Part shown: positions 18,556 through 63,738 of the stretch, piece by piece
How positions within the stretch are numbered: the first letter of the stretch is position 1
How the letters are laid out: every line of letters starts with the position of its first letter
NCBI GenBank assembly: GCA_030594645.1
Contig: JAUVEU010000001.1
Location: 81,405-145,404 of the forward strand
Length of the DNA: 64,000 nt
Reading direction: 5' to 3'
Source of the DNA: Candidatus Aegiribacteria sp.
GTDB taxonomy: Bacteria; Fermentibacterota; Fermentibacteria; Fermentibacterales; JCC-6
The notes under the pieces: generated by a model
Database searches by the model: none
What the model saw: the letters and a program-made list of their open reading frames with translations, nothing else
Told to the model about the DNA's origin: nothing
Position numbers and translations under genes: made by a program

Positions 18556-20175
18556 ATGCGAATACTACAAATTATCGTAAAAACAATTTTAATCATTTTA
18601 CTTATTCCCTGTTTAAGCTGGGCAGCAACCTACTATGTAGATCAGAATCATCCTGAATCCAGTGATACAAATCCAGGTACAGAATCATTACCGTGGCTAA
18701 CGATTCAGAAAGCTGCCAATACGATTATTGCAGGTGACACGGTGTACATCAAAGAAGGAATCTACAATGAGCAGGTTATACCACAGAATTCAGGAAGTTC
18801 CGGAAACCACATTACATATCTTGCTTATCCTGGCGACACCATCACAATTGATGGCACCGGTATACCATTGCCGGATTGGTATGGAGTGTTTGATATCACA
18901 GGCAAAAGCTATATCAAGGTTTCAGGGTTAAGAGTAATTAACTCCACAGATTCTGGAATTCTTGCATGGGAATCAGATCATATCACAATCGAGAATAACT
19001 ATACCTATAATACGGTTTCCTCAGGCATCGGCGTCTGGATTTGCTCCAATATAATTATTGATGGCAATGAGGTTGAGCTTGCCTGTAATGATGGTATGCA
19101 GGAATGTATTACAGTGGCTGTCACCGATACTTTTGAAGTCATGAATAATCATGTTCACCATGGAGGTCCCGGGACTAATGGAGGCGAGGGTATTGATGCA
19201 AAGGATGGAAGTTCAAACGGGATAGTTTATAAAAACTATGTGCACGATATGAATTCGAACAGATTGGGTATTTATGTAGATGCGTGGGACAAACACACCT
19301 ATAATATTGATGTCTATCAGAATACTGTACATAATTGTGCTCATGGTATTACCGTAGCTTCCGAGGCAGGCGGTCTTCTTGAAAACGTCAGAATTTATAA
19401 CAATATCGCTTACGATAATGAGGAAGTTGGAATCTGGATTGCTAACTGGTCGTTGGCACCACAGCAACCAATGAAGGATATTTTTGTGATAAACAACACC
19501 CTTTACAACAATGGGAATGAATGGGGTGGCGGAATAAATGTGATGAATTCGGATGCGGAGTATGTTGTCATAAGAAACAACATTTGTAGCCAAAACCTGT
19601 CATTTCAAATCGTAATAGAAGATGCCCCGCAAAATCTCTTTGTTGACCATAATTTAATCGATGGGTTTCGTGGATATCCGGGAGAGATTTTCGGCAGCGA
19701 CAGTGTAGTAGGAGATCCTTTGTTCGTGAATTCAGCGGAAGCCGACTTTCATCTGCAGATAAATTCACCTGCCATAGATAGAGGTTCATCTGTTGATGCA
19801 CCGAACTTCGATTTTGATGGAAATACACGACCTCAAGGTGCTGGATATGATATTGGCGCTTATGAATATCTATTGACCGGTGTTGATGAACAATCCAATG
19901 GAACACAATTGATGTTCAGGCTATATCCAAATAATCCAAATCCGTTCAATTCCGCAACTAGAATATCGTACTACATTCCAAGCTCATGTTATGTGACATT
20001 AACCATCTACGATCTTTCAGGCAGGGCAGTTCAAACTTTAGTGAATGAAAGCCAAACTACCGGCAGCCGTTCAGTCGATTTTGATGGCGGTAATCTTTCC
20101 AATGGCGTTTACTTCTACCAGTTGAAAGCAGGCAATGAGTTCGTTGAGACAAGGACTATGATATTGTTACGATAG
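18556..20175 (+). CDS. Secreted right-handed parallel beta-helix (pectate-lyase-fold) protein with a T9SS C-terminal sorting domain.
   Basis: There is a signal peptide and many Asn-ladder repeats (IYNNIAYDN, VINNTLYNNGNEWGGG, IRNNICSQN). The C-terminal Por/T9SS CTD reads LYPNNPNPFNSATRISYYIP...TIYDLSGRAV...NGVYFYQLKAGN. The gene is AT-rich relative to its surroundings. Confidence 0.8.
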   Translation: MRILQIIVKTILIILLIPCLSWAATYYVDQNHPESSDTNPGTESLPWLTIQKAANTIIAGDTVYIKEGIYNEQVIPQNSGSSGNHITYLAYPGDTITIDGTGIPLPDWYGVFDITGKSYIKVSGLRVINSTDSGILAWESDHITIENNYTYNTVSSGIGVWICSNIIIDGNEVELACNDGMQECITVAVTDTFEVMNNHVHHGGPGTNGGEGIDAKDGSSNGIVYKNYVHDMNSNRLGIYVDAWDKHTYNIDVYQNTVHNCAHGITVASEAGGLLENVRIYNNIAYDNEEVGIWIANWSLAPQQPMKDIFVINNTLYNNGNEWGGGINVMNSDAEYVVIRNNICSQNLSFQIVIEDAPQNLFVDHNLIDGFRGYPGEIFGSDSVVGDPLFVNSAEADFHLQINSPAIDRGSSVDAPNFDFDGNTRPQGAGYDIGAYEYLLTGVDEQSNGTQLMFRLYPNNPNPFNSATRISYYIPSSCYVTLTIYDLSGRAVQTLVNESQTTGSRSVDFDGGNLSNGVYFYQLKAGNEFVETRTMILLR

Positions 20176-31245: not shown

Positions 31246-31788
31246 ATGTTATCAGGGATTACTATTGCTATTCTTTCGCTTCTGAATATCACAGCCTGTT
31301 CTGATATTCAACATTCAGATTTGCAGCCCGGTTCAATAATTGCATTCGAAGAAAACGAATTAGAACCCACATCAGCACCCATCAATGTTGCGGATATACT
31401 TCAGGGAGTATGGCTGGTTTCATACCTCGATGATGATTTGAATCCTGTAAGGCTTGGAATTCTACTTATGGACAGCACTGAATATCAATTCATCCATTAT
31501 CCATCTGTTACGATTCCACCCTGGTACAGTTCAAGATTCAGTTTTGTCAGGAACCTGCATGGATCAGTCGAATTCGGGTATTTGCCTGAGACCGGTCAAA
31601 CAGGCTCAAATGTCTCAGCCAGACCTGATGACATACTGAGCGGGTTTAATAACCATGCTACTCTTGTTACGTGCCGGTTCGATGATGGCGAAGAATTCTA
31701 TATTATTCTGGATCTTGACGGAATGGAATTGTATTTCCATGGAATGCTGTCTGAGATTCAGCTTTATCATATTTATAAGAACATCTGA
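31246..31788 (+). CDS. Hypothetical lipoprotein.
   Basis: 180 aa with a lipobox (LLNITAC). Confidence 0.45.
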   Translation: MLSGITIAILSLLNITACSDIQHSDLQPGSIIAFEENELEPTSAPINVADILQGVWLVSYLDDDLNPVRLGILLMDSTEYQFIHYPSVTIPPWYSSRFSFVRNLHGSVEFGYLPETGQTGSNVSARPDDILSGFNNHATLVTCRFDDGEEFYIILDLDGMELYFHGMLSEIQLYHIYKNI

Positions 31789-39556: not shown

Positions 39557-40204
39557 TTACCGGTCTTTGTCCCATCCGGGAACAAGGCATCCTTCAAGAA
39601 GAATCTTCCAGGCACTGTCTATATATTCCATATCTATTTCAGGAGATTTATCATCTTCACTATTAAAGAAATCAAACCTTTTCTTTGAAAGAAACCAGAA
39701 TTCACAGAAAGCTGCATACATTGTAAGAATAAACCTTGGTTTAACATCGCTCCTGACAATACCAGATTCCTGCAATTTAATAATACCATTAATAAATAGC
39801 TCTGCCTTACTCTCCATTTGATCAGGGCATTCAACATGCATATTTTGTTCAGCATAAATCCATGCGATCATCTGCATATATCCCGGTTTTTTCATAAGAA
39901 TATCAAAGTAGCTGCCGGAACCAATCGCCATTTCGCGTACTTTTTCAATGGTCAAGCTAGAATCAATAATAGAATGCATTTTTTGCATCATCTCGTCTTT
40001 TTGAAAACCATGCAGCAGAGACTCATGCCATAGTTTTTCTTTCGATTTAAAATAGTAGTAAATCAAGCTTATTGTGACGTTTGCCCTGCTTGCTATGGAT
40101 CTTATGGATGTGCCTGAAAACCCGTTCTTTGCGAACAATTCACCTGCTGTTTCCAGGATCGCATTTCGTCTATCGATATTCAATCTACTGCCCTGTTCAG
40201 ACAC
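39557..40204 (-). CDS. TetR/AcrR family transcriptional regulator.
   Basis: The N-terminal HTH reads LFAKNGFSGTSIRSIASRANVTISLIYYYFKSKEKL. 215 aa. Confidence 0.85.
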   Translation of the reverse strand: MSEQGSRLNIDRRNAILETAGELFAKNGFSGTSIRSIASRANVTISLIYYYFKSKEKLWHESLLHGFQKDEMMQKMHSIIDSSLTIEKVREMAIGSGSYFDILMKKPGYMQMIAWIYAEQNMHVECPDQMESKAELFINGIIKLQESGIVRSDVKPRFILTMYAAFCEFWFLSKKRFDFFNSEDDKSPEIDMEYIDSAWKILLEGCLVPGWDKDR

Positions 40205-54332: not shown

Positions 54333-54419
54333 TGGTGCGAGAGGGGGGACTTGAACCCCCACAAGCCCAGCTTACCAGATCCTAAATCTGGCGCGTCTGC
54401 CAATTCCGCCACTCTCGCA
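54333..54419 (-). tRNA. tRNA-Leu (anticodon TAG), encoded CCA, long variable arm.
   Basis: The reverse complement folds as GCGAGAG acceptor / GGCGG..AGACGCGCC D-arm / CCAGA-UUUAGGA-UCUGG anticodon arm (UAG) / long variable arm / GGGGG-UUCAAGU-CCCCC T-arm / CUCUCGC-A-CCA. Confidence 0.85.
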
Positions 54420-57721: not shown

Positions 57722-58130
57722 CCGTTTCCAATCTCGATTCCTGTATAAGCCCCACATTGAGATAACCACCGCTGCCAAGTTCGGTCAGGGCGTTCGCAAC
57801 CACCTCATATCTTACATCCCTGTCTGCCCTGACAAAGGCTTCGGAACGGCCGGAATTATGAGCTGCTTCAGCAATATCCGAAAGATCCTCCAGCAGAACC
57901 TGCTCACCGGAAATGGCCAGATTGCCATAGGCGTCGATCTCGAGAACCAGTGACTCGTCGGGATCAAGGCTGCTCAGAATCCTTCCCTCATGAGAAGACG
58001 GAGGAGTAATATCCGCACTTCGCTGCATCACCGGAGATGTCAGCATGAAAATCACCAGCAAAACAATGGTGACATCCACCAGATTCGTTACATTGATTTG
58101 GGAGAACTGCTTATACCTGGTTCGTATCAT
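57708..58130 (-). CDS. tolR: Biopolymer transport protein ExbD/TolR.
   Basis: The ExbD/TolR N-terminal TM pattern NVTNLVDVTIVLLVIF is present. 140 aa. Confidence 0.85.
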   Translation of the reverse strand: MIRTRYKQFSQINVTNLVDVTIVLLVIFMLTSPVMQRSADITPPSSHEGRILSSLDPDESLVLEIDAYGNLAISGEQVLLEDLSDIAEAAHNSGRSEAFVRADRDVRYEVVANALTELGSGGYLNVGLIQESRLETDEIH

Positions 58131-58795
58131 TCAAGACTGCCTCTTCTACAGACGTCCACCAGTTCAGAAAGGAACCGATCCATATCTCCTGCAAGTGAAT
58201 TTATCCTTCCAACAACGAAGTTATGGAAAATATTTGCGGGTATCGCAGCCAGCAATCCTGCTACAGTTGTTGTCAGCGCTGCTGCAATACCAGCTCCCAC
58301 TGCGCTGAGATCAGCAACTCCAAGTTCCCTCATTCCTATAAAACTCGACAAAACCCCCCATACGGTACCAAGCAATCCAAGAAGAGGAGCTACACTTGTT
58401 ACAGTTGCAAGCAGTCCTATATTCCGCTCACGCTGGGCAAGATCCTCTCCTGCCTCCCGCTCAAGGGCGCTGGACAGGCTGGATGCTTCCTCGATAGAAA
58501 GGGGTTCTGTAATCCCTCTATCGGTTCTTCTCTGAAGAAAACGGCCCGCCTCAGCGTACATTCGCGCAAGCGGCCCTATCTCATTGTTCCTGCTCCAGAA
58601 TTCCCCACCAGGCGGTCTGCCTGTTGTCCTCAGTGCATCCATAAAGATTTTCGATGAACTGAGAATCGCTCTGAATTCCCGGATTTTCGCTATTGCAACG
58701 GCCCATGAACCAACCGAAAGGACAGCAATAATCACAAGAATGAGTTGGGTGACAATATCAGCCTGACCGACTATCTCAATAACTTTCCCTATCAA
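58127..58795 (-). CDS. tolQ: MotA/TolQ/ExbB proton channel.
   Basis: It has 3 TM helices and the conserved C-terminal region GLLGTVWG. Confidence 0.88.
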   Translation of the reverse strand: MIGKVIEIVGQADIVTQLILVIIAVLSVGSWAVAIAKIREFRAILSSSKIFMDALRTTGRPPGGEFWSRNNEIGPLARMYAEAGRFLQRRTDRGITEPLSIEEASSLSSALEREAGEDLAQRERNIGLLATVTSVAPLLGLLGTVWGVLSSFIGMRELGVADLSAVGAGIAAALTTTVAGLLAAIPANIFHNFVVGRINSLAGDMDRFLSELVDVCRRGSLE

Positions 58796-59076
58796 TACTG
58801 TTCCTCCTTCAGTGCTGCAATGGCTTCAATTTCAACAAGAGCGCCCAACGGCAGCTTCGAAACCGCGACAGCAGACCTCGCGGGAAAGGGTACCATAAAT
58901 CTCCTGGAATATATATCATTCACAATTGCTGAATCAGATATGTCTTCAAGATACAGGTTAATCTTCACAACGCTGTCCATGTTTGAACGGTCTTTCGCGT
59001 CATTCAGGCTCCTCTTTGAAATGAACATATACAGTATATACATACAAAGATACTTATCTGTTCCAATATATTTCAA
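58792..59076 (-). pseudogene. RidA (YjgF/L-PSP) family remnant; only the C-terminal ~60 aa of the domain is present.
   Basis: The C-terminal RidA signature is present (VVKINLYLEDISD..VNDIY...FPARSAVAVSKLPLGALVEIEAIA), but the N-terminal ~60% of the fold is absent. The encoded N-terminal 30 aa are unrelated, and the adjacent DNA is very AT-rich. Confidence 0.55.
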
Positions 59077-59117
59077 ATTCCTTTTCCGGTATCATCACGA
59101 TCTACAAATACTCATTG

Positions 59118-60236
59118 TTATTTTCTACTACACTTTGTACACTTCATTTGTGAATCCAGCAGTGAACCACAAATTTCGCAGACGGGCCTGCCCAGATTGT
59201 TTGCTACTGGCCGAGATACTGGAACAGCTACCCCTTGAAACAGGATTGAAAATCTGATGATAATCACTCCTAGTAAGATATATCCTATACATACATGTAA
59301 TGATAGAACAATATGACTTAGAATACTTGTGGGGTTTGCATGAATATCCCCAAAACCAAGAGTAGTCATTGTAACAATAGAAAAATAAATACTCCTTACG
59401 AATCGAAGTAAAGAACTACTCTCAATACCTCCTGAGTCCTTTATAAGCCAAGGATACAAGTAATATATTACTCCAAATATCACTGTATTTGCACAGAATG
59501 ATATTATTATCCTGATTGTAGACTGCCCATAATCACTCATGAGCCAGAATATCCTAGCTGGCCAAGATAGATATGGATGCATTTTATACCAATCCTGCCA
59601 GTGACCACGCCTTATATTTCCCTCTAATTTCATTCGGAGCCTTGGTTCAATTCGCATTGAACCTAATGCAACACCAGTAAAATCAGTGAGTCTATCGCAA
59701 TGTTTCGTCCATAGCTGTGTTTCACTATCTACTATCGCAGACTCAAAGGTAGCTCCTTCTATTCTTGATCCATTCAAATCTGCGCTTTTAATATTTGCGT
59801 CACCAAAATCTGTATCTCTTATATCGGCATAATCGAGACATACTCCTACCATCTCTGCATCAATAAATACTGCCCTCCGGAAACAAGTATTTTTAAGAAA
59901 TGCGTTATCAAGATGAGCACCAGTAAAATTTGCATCACTGAAATCACCACTATCGAGGTTACTCCATTCCATTTCGGAATACCCAAGATCTACTCCAGAT
60001 AATGTAAATCCACTTAAATCCGCAGCCTCAAGAAGAATGGAAAGAGATGATCCATTAACAGAATCGATAATTGCAGATTGTCTCCATTCATTCCATTCTG
60101 ATACATTATGCTGCACAGAACAATTTTTTAGCATTTCATACTGCTCAGGGCTAAAAAGCCTTGCAGTTCCGCAAATAGGACATACTAAGGTTTGCGCCTC
60201 AATCTCTTTAAAACAGTTCCTGCACGGAGCCCTCAA
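59118..60236 (-). CDS. Pentapeptide-repeat protein fused to a K+-channel-like pore domain, with N- and C-terminal zinc ribbons.
   Basis: The N-terminus has CxxC...CxxC. There are about 8 pentapeptide repeats (A(D/N)LSG / ANFTGAHLDNAFLKN). A TM helix, a pore helix with a selectivity-filter-like TTLGFGD and a second TM helix follow. The C-terminus has CEICG...CTKCSRK. Confidence 0.7.
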   Translation of the reverse strand: MRAPCRNCFKEIEAQTLVCPICGTARLFSPEQYEMLKNCSVQHNVSEWNEWRQSAIIDSVNGSSLSILLEAADLSGFTLSGVDLGYSEMEWSNLDSGDFSDANFTGAHLDNAFLKNTCFRRAVFIDAEMVGVCLDYADIRDTDFGDANIKSADLNGSRIEGATFESAIVDSETQLWTKHCDRLTDFTGVALGSMRIEPRLRMKLEGNIRRGHWQDWYKMHPYLSWPARIFWLMSDYGQSTIRIIISFCANTVIFGVIYYLYPWLIKDSGGIESSSLLRFVRSIYFSIVTMTTLGFGDIHANPTSILSHIVLSLHVCIGYILLGVIIIRFSILFQGVAVPVSRPVANNLGRPVCEICGSLLDSQMKCTKCSRK

Positions 60237-60525
60237 TATTCCCTCTATGATAATTTCCTCCCCAGTGTACAGTGTACATCTCAGTCAGAATATATACATT
60301 TTGCTAACAGGTGACTTTATAAAAGGAATCTTGATTTCAAAGTGTTCCGGGTATTTTCCCGAAACACCATATTCGTCCCAATAATACCTCCGATTCCTGC
60401 CTGAAACTGAGCATACTGCCCGAAACAACTACCTGTCAACAAAGCCAGCAGCAGATAATATTTCGGACCCCCACATAAGGACACACCTGCCTCCTGAAGC
60501 TGGTCACAGAGATTTCAACCGACTT

Positions 60526-60960
60526 CTATCTTCGGCATATCATCCTGCCATGGAACTGATATTCGCGAATGGAAGGGCTCGCAGACCAGCTCCAGCGGCT
60601 CTGGCGGGGGTACCTGTGATGCAGGAAATGCAGCCTGAGCATCTTCGGAACACTCCATACCCAGTGCCTGTGTGGAACAGGTCTGAAGAGTTCTTCCTCA
60701 AGGAAGATTGAAAGGTCCAACGACTTCCTCTTCGAACAGAATGGGCAGAACCCATTGCACTTGCAGGAAAAGGCCCTCAGATACTCAGCACCGCAGTCTT
60801 TGTAGCGAATCCTCTCAAAGCCGTAGTGATTATCTCCGCATTTCAGGTACTTTTCTATTACTTCATCTGTGATAGGGAGCTTCCCCTGAAACCTGTTTCC
60901 TGAGGGAGAGAAATCGTTTCATCTTCATGGAAGCTGACTGCAGTTGTCCGGGTATGGCTC
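60526..60960 (-). mobile_element. IS91-family (HUH Y2 rolling-circle) transposase remnant: an N-terminal zinc-binding region only, frameshifted and truncated.
   Basis: The translation ...HYGFERIRYKDCGAEYLRAFSCKCNGFCPFCSKRK...PHRHWVWSVPKMLR matches the IS91 transposase Zn-binding N-domain. The likely N-terminus MKMKRFLSLRKQ lies in another frame. The HUH/Y2 catalytic core is absent. Confidence 0.5.
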
Positions 60961-61144
60961 TTTGCATCTGACATATGCTGTGATAACGAGAAACAGGGCT
61001 TTCATTGAAGGCTATAAGGCCTACAGGAAGTGGAGACAAAACCGGTGAAAAGGGTGCGTACATTATATCTCTGTGAATTCATAAAGGTCGTTCAGTCACA
61101 GCGACCAGCAGGATTTCCGGCACGGCCAGGTTGTTGAGCGTGTT

Positions 61145-62539
61145 TTACCTCATCAACAGGGTGGTGAATAAACGTATCTCCGGGCGCCGGACACTTACAT
61201 CCGGGTAATCCTCGTAAATACGATCGGCCAACATGAGCTGGTATTCGGCGCCAATACTCCAGTTCTTGTTCAGGGGAACGGCCAGCCGTGCCGTGGATAT
61301 CGATATATGATGGTCGGACCGGTTTCCATTTACCGTGTGAATGAAGTTCTGCTCGTGGCTGACGGAAAGCAAATGGTGGCCGTTGCTGATGAACTCCGCG
61401 GTGAAATAGGCGGTGACACCGGGACCGTAATCGTAGTCGCGCCCGCTGAGATTCGGATAATTGCTGGTGGAAGCCCCCAGTATAATGGCGCTCAGATCCA
61501 GACAGGTGCGCAGTTCCAGTCCGGATTCGGTCTCGAAGCGTGAGAGCAGGCCCCCACCCAGGCTCTGGGAGCCGAAGTCAAATTGATTACTGTTGAAATA
61601 GTCAAAGTGATGCCAGACGGCCAGGATGTGGGAGGCGTTGTCAGTTTCACTGATGAAGGTACCGGCCAGCAGACCATTGCTCTGGACCCGACCGATCAAA
61701 CTTTTGTCGCCAAAATTCAGCTGCAGATCCAGATCGAAGTGGTCGTAGGGGCTGTTCATATCACCGAAGAAAGGATCGCCGTAGTCGAACTGAAAGTGCG
61801 TGTAGACCCGGGTGGTGTCGTAATCCCACACCATGTGTTCGCCTGTTTGACGCACGCCGATATCCATTTGTGAGCGGTAATTCAGGGCGAATCGTTCGAC
61901 GCTGTTGGGGTAGCGGCGGGAAGCGTCACCGTCGATCAAACGGTTAAAGCCGCCAACGGGATTGATGGCAAATCCGGCGATCTCCCGCCAGGTGCGCTCG
62001 CTGCCGCTGGCGCGGTTGTCCAGTACCATTTTACTGAAGCGGTGCAGTATTTCACCCATACCGGTGCCACCCATACTGGTGGCGATCCAGTCGTTCATGC
62101 TTGGATGATGGGTTTCTCCGAAATACTCCCACAGAAAGCTGCCGGCAAATGTGAAGGGAACAGACTCCCAGAACGAATAGCCGTTGCTGCGGGCAGCGTT
62201 GAAATATAGGCTGCCGTGGTACGGATGGGCGTACTGGTTTGTATCGAAGTTGTTGTCGTCCCATTCGAAACCGTTGGTCAGGTTTTCCTTCCAGCTGTTG
62301 AAACCAATGCGGAAGCCCTCCCCCCCGCCCTCTCGAATGTAGCGATTAAGGGACCAGACCAACGTGTTAATGCCTATCACTTCAACAGTCGTCCGAAGGA
62401 AGTTTTTGTCCATGAGTAAGGTATCTTCCAGGGCCGAGGGTGTGTTCCGGTTCGGGTCAATGGGCTCGGCGGCCGCTGAACCTGACGAAAACCGGCCCAG
62501 CAGGCTGACGGTGATGAGCAGTGTCGTGATTTTCTTCAT
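61145..62539 (-). CDS. Hypothetical secreted protein (DUF3943-like).
   Basis: 464 aa with a signal peptide, rich in W/Y/F/D/N. GC is markedly higher than in the rest of the window. Confidence 0.5.
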   Translation of the reverse strand: MKKITTLLITVSLLGRFSSGSAAAEPIDPNRNTPSALEDTLLMDKNFLRTTVEVIGINTLVWSLNRYIREGGGEGFRIGFNSWKENLTNGFEWDDNNFDTNQYAHPYHGSLYFNAARSNGYSFWESVPFTFAGSFLWEYFGETHHPSMNDWIATSMGGTGMGEILHRFSKMVLDNRASGSERTWREIAGFAINPVGGFNRLIDGDASRRYPNSVERFALNYRSQMDIGVRQTGEHMVWDYDTTRVYTHFQFDYGDPFFGDMNSPYDHFDLDLQLNFGDKSLIGRVQSNGLLAGTFISETDNASHILAVWHHFDYFNSNQFDFGSQSLGGGLLSRFETESGLELRTCLDLSAIILGASTSNYPNLSGRDYDYGPGVTAYFTAEFISNGHHLLSVSHEQNFIHTVNGNRSDHHISISTARLAVPLNKNWSIGAEYQLMLADRIYEDYPDVSVRRPEIRLFTTLLMR

Positions 62540-63738
62540 GAGTTAAACAGTGAGATCCCACCGAAAACATGGCCTTCGGTAGTGGATCGGGTATGGGGTG
62601 CGTACTCGAGAAAGACGGTGCTGAAACCGATACCGCCAATCAGGGAAAAACTGTTTGTAAGCCGATAATCGGCAAAAAGACGCATTTGCAGGGCATAATG
62701 CAGCTCGTCGTTAATCAGGGAATCGTCGTAGTCACCGGGGATGACATGCAGATATCCGGCATCTGCGGTGAGCCCCAGTTCAGGGCTGATCGGGAACAGG
62801 CGTCCGAAGTGCCACCCAAGGAAAGCGGAGTTCACTGCGTCGGAAGCCTGATCGGAAAACCCAAGGGAAATCACCGAGGACCAGTTGTTGACAATGGTTC
62901 GCAGTCCGATGTTGTACAGGGACAGATTGCTGGCGTACACCACACAGTTGACCCGCCCGTCATCTGTCAGGTTTACCAGACCCACGGGTACTCCGGCAAT
63001 TCGTCGGGAGATGTTGACAGCTCCAAATTGTACGCCGGACATGTCTTCGGTAATATTGAGCAGACCGATTTGAACACCTTTCAGCCGGTCTGCATAGTTC
63101 AGCATCGCTGTCTGCAGGCCGAAAGTCTCGGACCCGGCAAAATTCATGATGCCCGCCAGCTGCATTCCGCCAAAAGTCCTGACATTGACGTTAGCTATCG
63201 AACTGATCTGAAGAACTCCGCCCGAGCAATCGTTGAGATTCATCAGGCCGCTGAACTGGACACCGCGGAAACCCTTGCTGGTGTAATTCAAAATTCCTGA
63301 AAACTGGACACCGGTAAAAAAGTCCTGGTGGAAATTGACAAGGCCGGAAAACTGGATTCCGGCAGCCGGGCCCTGGTGGACCTGGACCCCGTTGTTGATG
63401 GAAATACCGGTGAAAGAGCCTCCTATCTGGCTGTAGAGCCCGGTCAGCTGTACTCCGGAAAAACGTCCTTCGGTGATGGAAACCACACCGCAGGCATCGA
63501 AACCGGTAATGTTGCCGGAGCGCCCGAAAATCAAGCCCAATCGAACACTGGTGTCAGTTTCAGGGTTGGGACTGGTGGCCAGGGGGTGAAATATTTGCAG
63601 ACTGATTGGATGGTAACCCGCGCCCAGGCAAGCCTTTGGAGCCGACATCGCGGTAAAGGCGATTACAGTGAAAAGAAAAACAGAAGCTATATTCTGTCTG
63701 AACCATCGGCACCTGTGATTTGACCTATTTTTAAGCAT
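62536..63738 (-). CDS. Secreted tandem-repeat protein of about 12 repeats of ~19 aa (consensus G-V/M-Q-F/L-S/A-G-L/I-x-N).
   Basis: Repeats include GVQLTGLYSQ, GIQFSGLVNF, GVQFSGILNY, GVQFSGLMNL, GMQLAGIMNF, GVQIGLLNIT, GVQFGAVNIS and GVPVGLVNLT. The C-terminal ~130 aa region is non-repetitive. High GC. Confidence 0.5.
   Translation of the reverse strand: MLKNRSNHRCRWFRQNIASVFLFTVIAFTAMSAPKACLGAGYHPISLQIFHPLATSPNPETDTSVRLGLIFGRSGNITGFDACGVVSITEGRFSGVQLTGLYSQIGGSFTGISINNGVQVHQGPAAGIQFSGLVNFHQDFFTGVQFSGILNYTSKGFRGVQFSGLMNLNDCSGGVLQISSIANVNVRTFGGMQLAGIMNFAGSETFGLQTAMLNYADRLKGVQIGLLNITEDMSGVQFGAVNISRRIAGVPVGLVNLTDDGRVNCVVYASNLSLYNIGLRTIVNNWSSVISLGFSDQASDAVNSAFLGWHFGRLFPISPELGLTADAGYLHVIPGDYDDSLINDELHYALQMRLFADYRLTNSFSLIGGIGFSTVFLEYAPHTRSTTEGHVFGGISLFNS

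Follow-up and report, generated by a model that had tools for sequence, protein, structure and literature searches.

A strain-variable junction upstream of the ridA-tolQRAB-pal operon of Candidatus Aegiribacteria appears to record several separate events

In insertion sequences (ISs) of the IS91 family, the target tetranucleotide GTTC or CTTG abuts the oriIS end, and one-ended transposition enables the elements to move neighbouring DNA; classically, the DNA mobilised in this way lies beyond terIS and is reached by read-through at terIS (PMC13181058). ISCR1 typically carries variable foreign genes on its oriIS side, driven from outward promoters (PMC6218425). The subject of this work is a locus in Candidatus Aegiribacteria sp. 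(assembly GCA_030594645.1, contig JAUVEU010000001.1, positions 81,405-145,404 of the forward strand; this whole stretch of 64,000 nt is referred to as the window), where a remnant of an IS91-family element, a gene for a pentapeptide-repeat K+ channel and a fragment of the ridA gene precede the tol-pal cluster. All genes and gene remnants discussed lie on the minus strand, in the order orf400, a DUF3943 gene, 900 bp of non-coding DNA with transposase-like frames, an open reading frame (ORF) of 372 aa (the channel gene), an ORF of 94 aa (containing the ridA fragment), and the tol-pal cluster. As in ISCR1, the channel gene follows the 3' end of the IS remnant, on its oriIS side, and has the same orientation. 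The first-pass annotation of this DNA attributed the whole arrangement to one old, mobile-element-mediated insertion that disrupted ridA and delivered the channel gene. We propose, with a probability of roughly 85%, that the locus is a strain-variable junction just 5' of the ridA-tolQRAB-pal operon, in which several separate events are recorded rather than one.

For comparison, 29 loci from metagenome-assembled genomes (MAGs) of Candidatus Aegiribacteria/Fermentibacteria were retrieved with the TolQ protein as the query. In five of these MAG loci (L004, L005, L006, L007 and L031) TolQ shares 95-96% aa identity with that of the window. Up to position 58988, blastn shows collinearity between the window and these closest relatives, with an nt identity of about 87-90%, and this collinearity reaches back to about 48.1-49.0 kb, where the longer loci (L004, L007, L031) end. 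All five carry a full-length, 130-aa ridA directly upstream of tolQ. In the window the same place is taken by the 94-aa ORF (58792-59076), which covers only positions 60-120 of the 121 of the Ribonuc_L-PSP profile (Pfam PF01042, E=3.2e-14), in agreement with the RidA C-terminal fragment recognised in the first-pass annotation. Among the Rid family of enamine/imine deaminases (PF01042, TIGR00004), it is the C-terminal 64 residues of the fragment that align, with the PARS motif and the (I/V)E(I/V)EAIA end; in contrast to functional members, the window copy lacks residues 6-66, is shifted in frame and scores below the curated cutoff (62.1 bits against 106.25 for TIGR00004, over profile positions 67-124 of 125 only), while the full-length RidA of the relatives passes it (134.3 bits over positions 2-124 for the L007 orthologue). 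The part that remains (58792-58988; PF01042 and alignment) comprises codons 67-130 and the stop, including the FPARSAV...VEIEAIA region, and is 90.6% identical at the aa level to residues 67-130 of the L007 protein. It retains the sequence FPARSAVAV with the active-site arginine of the PARS motif, which we take to be R105 in the E. coli numbering; the N-terminal residues that complete the RidA trimer-interface site are deleted.

The alignment with each of the five relatives shows that exactly 181 bp are missing from the window, corresponding to ridA codons 6-66. The loss of the N-terminal part claimed in the first-pass annotation is thus real, and its estimate of about 60% was slightly high (61 of 130 codons). 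In the relatives, GTTCA[G/A]ACA stands at the left edge of the gap and GTTCAAACA at its right edge. One copy of the repeat stays in the window, which explains a 9-bp overlap of the two blastn segments, at an offset of 181 bp in 5/5 relatives: the deletion junction, at 58980-58988, is the single remaining GTTCAAACA (blastn and alignment). L067, an independent metagenome scaffold from ENA found via P0280 (a protein that clusters at 90% with the channel protein), already has GTTCAAACA as its left repeat, so that in the window's likely ancestor the two 9-bp copies would have matched perfectly. The ridA leader/promoter region, Shine-Dalgarno (SD) sequence, ATG and first five codons are intact (58989-59066, 87-97% nt identity to the five relatives): the leader at 59004-59066, the SD AGAGGAG at about 59010-59016, the native ATG at 59001-59003 and the codons ATG ACG CGA AAG ACC are all preserved, and the alignment places leader and ATGACGCGAAAGACC intact beside a clean gap. 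Since 181 is not divisible by three, the native ridA frame now ends after 12 codons. A TTG that precedes the leader opens the 94-aa ORF, whose residues 1-32 come from translating the leader in the frame that the surviving 3' half uses; in the relatives, tblastn places them upstream of ridA. The ORF as annotated is therefore an accident, and its N-terminal residues, which had been described as an unrelated replacement, are nothing of the kind.

With codons 6-66 lost and the frame shifted, ridA in the window is a pseudogene, which owes its state to the loss of an internal stretch flanked by short direct repeats. Either replication slippage or a microhomology-mediated deletion would account for the loss, which in its form, with the DNA between two 9-bp direct repeats removed and one copy kept, resembles other pseudogene-forming deletions mediated by short repeats and is in no way unusual. 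The repeat happens to hold GTTC, one of the IS91-family target/cleavage tetranucleotides, and nothing points beyond coincidence. Private codon changes in the remnant comprise 9 synonymous and 2 conservative non-synonymous substitutions and 0 stops, which suggests that most of the divergence arose under selection and that the deletion is probably recent. Together with the still strongly foreign composition of the channel gene described below, this speaks against the old age assigned to the events in the first-pass annotation. There is no second ridA paralogue within the 64-kb window. In PADLOC the fragment hits the model PD-T4-2_B (E=1.5e-9), over the 60 positions at the C-terminal end of the model and by its RidA-like C-terminus only; this suggests that the PD-T4-2_B defence protein contains a RidA-like domain, and is no evidence of a defence role for the fragment in the window.

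The second event is separated from the deletion by the leader. The five relatives match the window as far as 59066/59067, at TTGGAACAG, and further upstream they differ among themselves. The empty site, seen in four relatives, reads ...AAT-ATTACRCTCTT-TTGGAACAG in L004, L006 and L007, and in L004 CTCAAT precedes the 11 bp that the filled site has lost; L031 shows the right-hand part of the empty site only. The filled site is seen in L067, which is 95.8% identical to the window over 60611-58980. Its left flank is of the L006 type (the end of an RCC1/Por_Secre_tail gene and intergenic DNA) up to ...CTCAAT, and is followed by the final ~45 codons of a transposase of the IS91 family (...ILKHLDLWEDPRPPPEPLELV...IEVG*), the 3' non-coding end of the element, the channel gene, a 50-bp tail, the ridA leader and then ATGACGCGAAAGACCGTTCAAACAGCTGACTCTCCC, i.e. 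the ridA start without the deletion. In particular, L067 continues from GTTCAAAC into GCTGACTCTCCC, which is lost in the window, and not into the deletion junction. The comparison of empty and filled sites delimits an insert of 1.58 kb, which replaces 11 bp and lies wholly upstream of the ridA leader. As L067 combines the filled site with an undeleted ridA start, the insertion preceded the ridA deletion. The channel gene, the IS91 fragment, the DUF3943 gene and orf400 are absent from all 30 related tolQ loci. The ridA fragment of the 94-aa ORF is found beside the 3' end of the channel gene also in two Logan assemblies (L002 and L003), and a third (L001) contains the whole channel gene and the first 13 codons of the ridA-fragment ORF.

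The channel gene is thus foreign, and it arrived physically linked to a fragment of an IS91-family element, much as the first-pass annotation had it. The same cannot be said of the claim that this insertion disrupted ridA: the insert stops at 59067, upstream of an intact leader, ribosome-binding site and ATG, and it was the separate 181-bp deletion that broke the gene. On the right, the insert ends with an AT-rich tail after the channel stop (59067-59117), which is common to L067 and the window and whose boundary at 59067/59066 abuts TTGGAACAG; the AT-rich spacer of the first-pass annotation (59077-59117, 36.6% GC) is likewise present. We considered whether this tail could be a second, partial oriIS-like end and rejected the idea, as the similarity TACCGGAA...TTTGAAAT has a local alignment score of 17, which compares with 15.1±2.3 for shuffled sequences and is reached by 20% of them.

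We propose the following scenario. A foreign segment of 1.58 kb first took the place of 11 bp located between the ridA leader and the gene upstream of it, leaving ridA intact. In the window lineage the left side became a Zn-domain fragment fused to a C-terminal tail, after the high-GC orf400-DUF3943 pair, which could be due to deletion, to recombination between IS copies, or to an assembly join. Later, 181 bp were lost between the two GTTCAAACA repeats. In addition, a 7-bp tandem duplication shifted the frame of the original ATG of the channel gene. What the comparisons show is the gene content, the deletion, the two states of the insertion site and the order of the events. It is the existence of empty-site, filled-site and intermediate haplotypes that allows the single-event interpretation to be split into ordered, independent events. 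What emerges is ordinary genome decay at a hypervariable junction, not a new system, and the parts of the locus do not function as one. The value of the case is modest, and it leaves the current understanding unchanged.

The IS remnant itself consists of three pieces. The N-terminal fragment of the transposase (60612-60876, residues ~49-136) contains the Zn-binding domain: the frame of 60876-60600 matches Zn_Tnp_IS91 (PF14319) over profile positions 18-89 of 90 with E=1.8e-13 (50.7 bits against a cutoff of 26.3), and the fragment is 80% identical to residues 49-124 of P0123. At 60611/60612 it is joined to the last 31 transposase codons and the stop (PPPEPLELVCEPFHSRISVPWQDDMPKIEVG*; 60515-60611, tblastn with P0136), which are in a different frame; the homology to L067 starts at the same join, and the intact 452-aa transposases of L068 and L069 have identical C-terminal tails. 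There follows the 3' non-coding end of the element (60318-60514, on the oriIS side by its position, identified by shared 3' termini), which finishes with the conserved terminus GAAATCAAGATTCCTTTTA (60318-60336), the window reading ...ATTCCTTTTA at 60318-60327. The first-pass annotation had correctly described a frameshifted, truncated N-terminal fragment of an IS91-type transposase and had missed the C-terminal tail and the 3' end. The 3' terminus GAAATCMARATTCCTATTG (...ATTCCTATTG) is common to six copies with different surroundings, which diverge right after it; the full-length element of L069 ends likewise. The terminus presumably resembles the canonical oriIS motif TTCCTAT. The flanks that follow it in the six copies are TTTC, TTAA, TTCA, CTAA, ATTA and TAAA, with no consistent tetranucleotide among them. 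In its Zn_Tnp_IS91 domain, in a conserved 3' terminus without inverted repeats and in the variable, often foreign genes found on the same strand past that terminus, as in ISCR1 (PMC6218425), this Fermentibacterota lineage thus resembles IS91/ISCR elements; it may differ from the IS91 family in that no GTTC/CTTG is seen next to the 3' terminus in the six copies, and its transposition is putative. At 60410-60439 a conserved outward motif, TTGACA-N18-TATGCT, points to the channel gene, as a match to the consensus only.

The HUH-Y2 catalytic domain (PF04986), which scores 57.7 bits in the intact relative in L069, is absent from all frames of the window; the remnant also lacks the first 48 codons and has no match to the ~165-bp 5' (terIS-side) region common to L068, L069 and L037. 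Therefore, it is incapable of moving by itself. The window holds no second IS91 copy and no full-length transposase. Elsewhere in the phylum there are intact transposases of 450-452 aa with both Zn_Tnp_IS91 and Y2_Tnp domains, L069 carries a complete element of ~1.72 kb, and a relative of 496 aa (P0137) reaches 123 bits on the NCBIfam IS91 model (cutoff 125). Many short fragments, 77-90% identical, were found by word-based and HMMER searches in unrelated contexts in Aegiribacteria and Sabulitectum. This IS91-family element of Fermentibacterota, ~1.72 kb long, with a 452-aa transposase and the ...ATTCCTATTG 3' end, had not been described before.

The channel gene (59118-60236, 372 aa) codes for a pentapeptide-repeat domain fused to a K+ channel pore of two helices, and CxxC zinc-ribbon motifs stand at either end of the product. 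Its protein matches Pentapeptide (PF00805; E=8e-15, 54.5 bits, gathering threshold 20.2) and Ion_trans_2 (PF07885; E=5.6e-9, 36.2 bits, gathering threshold 22.5) and possesses the selectivity filter TMTTLGFGD; in the PDB, the pore region aligns to KirBac and the repeat part matches pentapeptide-repeat structures (E=3.5e-18). The low GC noted in the first-pass annotation is borne out by the composition: the gene has 38.6% GC, compared to 47.0% for the window, and its GC content at third codon positions (GC3) of 0.282 is the lowest of the 48 window genes (z=-2.5). Fusions of pentapeptide repeats with Ion_trans_2, annotated as 'pentapeptide repeat-containing protein' or 'ion channel', are found in Planctomycetota, Latescibacter and others, with the same domain order, the TMTTLGFGD filter and often an N-terminal CxxC...CxxC ribbon. 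The window protein differs from other members of this family in its low similarity (at most 43% identity, the value for its best non-self homologue) and in its own 7-bp duplication, which removes the original start codon. The family is large yet uncharacterised: our literature search on pentapeptide-K+ channel fusions returned nothing relevant and no experimentally characterised member, and the present analysis flags one more of its members.

Comparison with L067 reveals 12 synonymous and 14 non-synonymous differences in the channel gene (pN/pS 0.32). The L067-type ATG is at 60277-60279 and, within 60264-60279, the window carries the tandem duplication GTACACT|GTACACT (60271-60277 and 60264-60270), which puts this ATG out of frame, so that the ORF restarts at the TTG at 60236, 12 codons after the L067-type start. 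Homologues carry 10-40 residues ahead of the first CxxC. Judging from this truncation, the window copy of the channel may be impaired, and the duplication may be an early step toward losing the gene.

Several observations weigh against our interpretation. The left junction, i.e. the 60611/60612 join with the DUF3943 gene beyond it, is found only on this contig: L001 stops at about 60415, and no independent assembly covers 60416-61144. Metagenome mis-joins classically occur at IS repeats. With 36 bp of ridA covered, L067 speaks for the absence of the deletion junction, though not for an intact remainder of the gene. The deletion and the 7-bp duplication are known from assembled sequence and may or may not be fixed in the population. 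The insertion junctions have no target duplication and no consistent GTTC/CTTG by the IS end, which is why we leave two options for the arrival of the segment: it may have come by illegitimate recombination or by IS-associated transfer. Finally, a scan of 58700-61300 for the sigma-70 consensus was not above chance (7 sites against 6.0 expected), and the promoter role of the leader discussed below is argued from conservation.

The first two of these points bear on a mis-join of the contig via the IS91 3' repeat, in which case the true flank of the channel gene would be of the L067 type and the segment with DUF3943, orf400 and the mini-IS would belong elsewhere. We regard this as unlikely, although the IS family is multi-copy, its copies are mostly on short contigs, the contigs of several relatives break just upstream of ridA, the left flank of L067 is different, and that of the window is opposite in composition to the channel gene (GC3 0.70 versus 0.28). 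On the other hand, the window and L067 differ by ~4%, which makes a real rearrangement plausible. Moreover, the ridA deletion, the right boundary of the insert and the channel gene are backed by independent assemblies and would be unaffected by a mis-join. In the strain-variable junction that we favour, the left side may have arisen by internal deletion of a once-complete copy, by recombination with another internally deleted copy beside the DUF3943 gene, or by mis-joining.

Far less probable is that the 94-aa ORF, or 62 aa translated from an internal ATG at 58981, is a functional mini-RidA under selection. Its frame is open, both FPARSAV with the catalytic-site arginine and VEIEAIA are kept, and its private substitutions are mostly synonymous (9 versus 2); however, a recent deletion explains the synonymous excess equally well. 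Further, the domain lacks its N-terminal half (positions 1-59 of the Pfam profile), the TIGR00004 score is under the cutoff, the native ATG is out of frame, and the listed TTG start lies upstream of the leader without a ribosome-binding site. The short form is seen in no relative, where ridA is either full-length or reduced to smaller, differently deleted and decaying remnants, so that its interpretation as a fragment stands. The first-pass view, that a single old IS91-mediated insertion split ridA, took away the 5' part of the gene and brought in the channel gene, we consider the least probable of all. The truncated ridA does lie beside the foreign channel gene and the IS91 fragment, and one-ended transposition of neighbouring DNA is known for the IS91 family (PMC13181058). 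The view is contradicted, however, since the conserved leader, SD, ATG and five codons of ridA lie between insert and deletion, the deletion is internal to ridA with a 9-bp repeat at its edges, L067 has the insert without the deletion, and the channel gene is on the 3' (oriIS) side and not on the side mobilised by terIS read-through (PMC13181058).

The separate fate of ridA at this strain-variable junction is better understood from other members of the clade. In L008, L012-L018 and L029, all that different deletions have left of ridA before tolQ is the leader, some nine codons of the N-terminus (MFETVETDS) and the final 25-60 bp. Loss of ridA is therefore recurrent here, with at least two independent initiating deletions. 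Within the ~200 bp 5' of tolQ (e.g. L012:1975-2178), some of these fused remnants form a mini-ORF of ~18 codons whose stop and the tolQ start overlap; others have already lost the start codon or the frame. Thus, ridA upstream of tolQ is dispensable and repeatedly eroded in Aegiribacteria, and the erosion always spares the leader and the ribosome-binding site of tolQ. The reason for the retention of the 3' end may be found in the start of tolQ (58127-58795, 222 aa; Pfam MotA_ExbB, E=5.8e-29): in the window and in the relatives its TTG overlaps the ridA stop (TTGA), and in the window its SD, AAGGAGGA, lies inside the 3' end of ridA. As the last ridA bases carry this SD and the overlapping stop and start, expression of tol-pal should be preserved. 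We believe that the ridA leader/promoter and the last ridA bases are probably still functional, a view supported by the sparing of the same parts in the relatives. The operon continues with tolR (ExbD), a tolA-like gene (TonB_C-type), tolB (PD40 beta-propeller), pal (OmpA) and then a gene for a TPR protein.

The leader motif TGGAACAGA...TGTATATA upstream of ridA/tolQ is kept across the genus-level clade (L004-L031 and L008-L029), even where ridA is gone. From its conservation, the leader could be the promoter of the operon or a site for a regulator. On inspection only, the spacings do not fit a sigma-54 or Bacteroidetes-type promoter, nor does the sigma-70 spacing fit; a terminator scan of 58700-61300 found none. 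Further mobile elements gather at sites of this kind: upstream of the ridA gene in L004 there is an IS630-type DDE_3 transposase (L004:447-1583), and just downstream of the tol-pal cluster of the window there is a tRNA gene (54336-54418, minus strand; Rfam, 58.6 bits).

It is tempting to speculate, although we hold it to be rather doubtful, that Fermentibacterota harbour an ISCR-like lineage of IS91-family elements, the oriIS-side ends of which travel with, and perhaps drive, foreign cargo genes. This idea rests on six contexts, in five of which a gene on the same strand begins 80-300 bp past the conserved terminus. The five genes encode the K+ channel, a double-zinc-ribbon protein, an FGE-sulfatase-like protein, a 331-aa beta-propeller-like protein and a 149-aa protein, and three of them are strongly AT-rich relative to the host. 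An outward motif, TTGAC-N18-TATGNT, is conserved in the 3' region. If the idea were true, it would mean rolling-circle gene capture in an uncultured environmental phylum, moving cargo other than resistance genes. In L035 (4540-7535) there are two tandem units, each with an IS91-family 3' end and then a strongly AT-rich gene, for a 291-aa multi-zinc-ribbon protein (GC 27%) and for an FGE-sulfatase-like protein (GC 34%), in a locus of 46% GC; the arrangement recalls ISCR arrays. Homology of the channel to the zinc-ribbon cargo of L035 was considered and rejected, the similarity being at the level of CxxC only (E=0.012). The full-length element of L069 has several DDE transposases and a DruA-domain gene beside it (L069:3258-7266).

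To the left of the IS remnant, the spacer that separates it from the DUF3943 gene (60877-61144) is without similarity to other IS copies in blastn and tblastn, and neither Pfam (three frames) nor Rfam gives a hit there. The DUF3943 gene (61145-62539; Pfam DUF3943) overlaps by 4 bp with orf400 (62536-63738), which encodes LA_2272-type surface repeats (NCBIfam LA_2272 repeat). The two have the highest GC3 in the window, with values of 0.697 (z=+3.8) and 0.606 (z=+2.4). Since this pair has the highest and the channel gene the lowest GC3, the region is a compositional mosaic. A metagenome scan with the DUF3943 protein returned only relatives of at most 74% identity, none of them beside tolQ, ridA, the channel gene or IS91; the two genes are adjacent in 19 of 28 metagenome loci, at the same level of identity (<=74%), and form a conserved two-gene module, probably associated with the envelope. 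The PADLOC search gave no match for the channel, DUF3943 or orf400 proteins. Elsewhere in the window, at 18556-20175, 31246-31788 and 39557-40204, there are three more low-GC genes (0.38-0.41, compared to the mean of 0.47), which are possible additional foreign genes.

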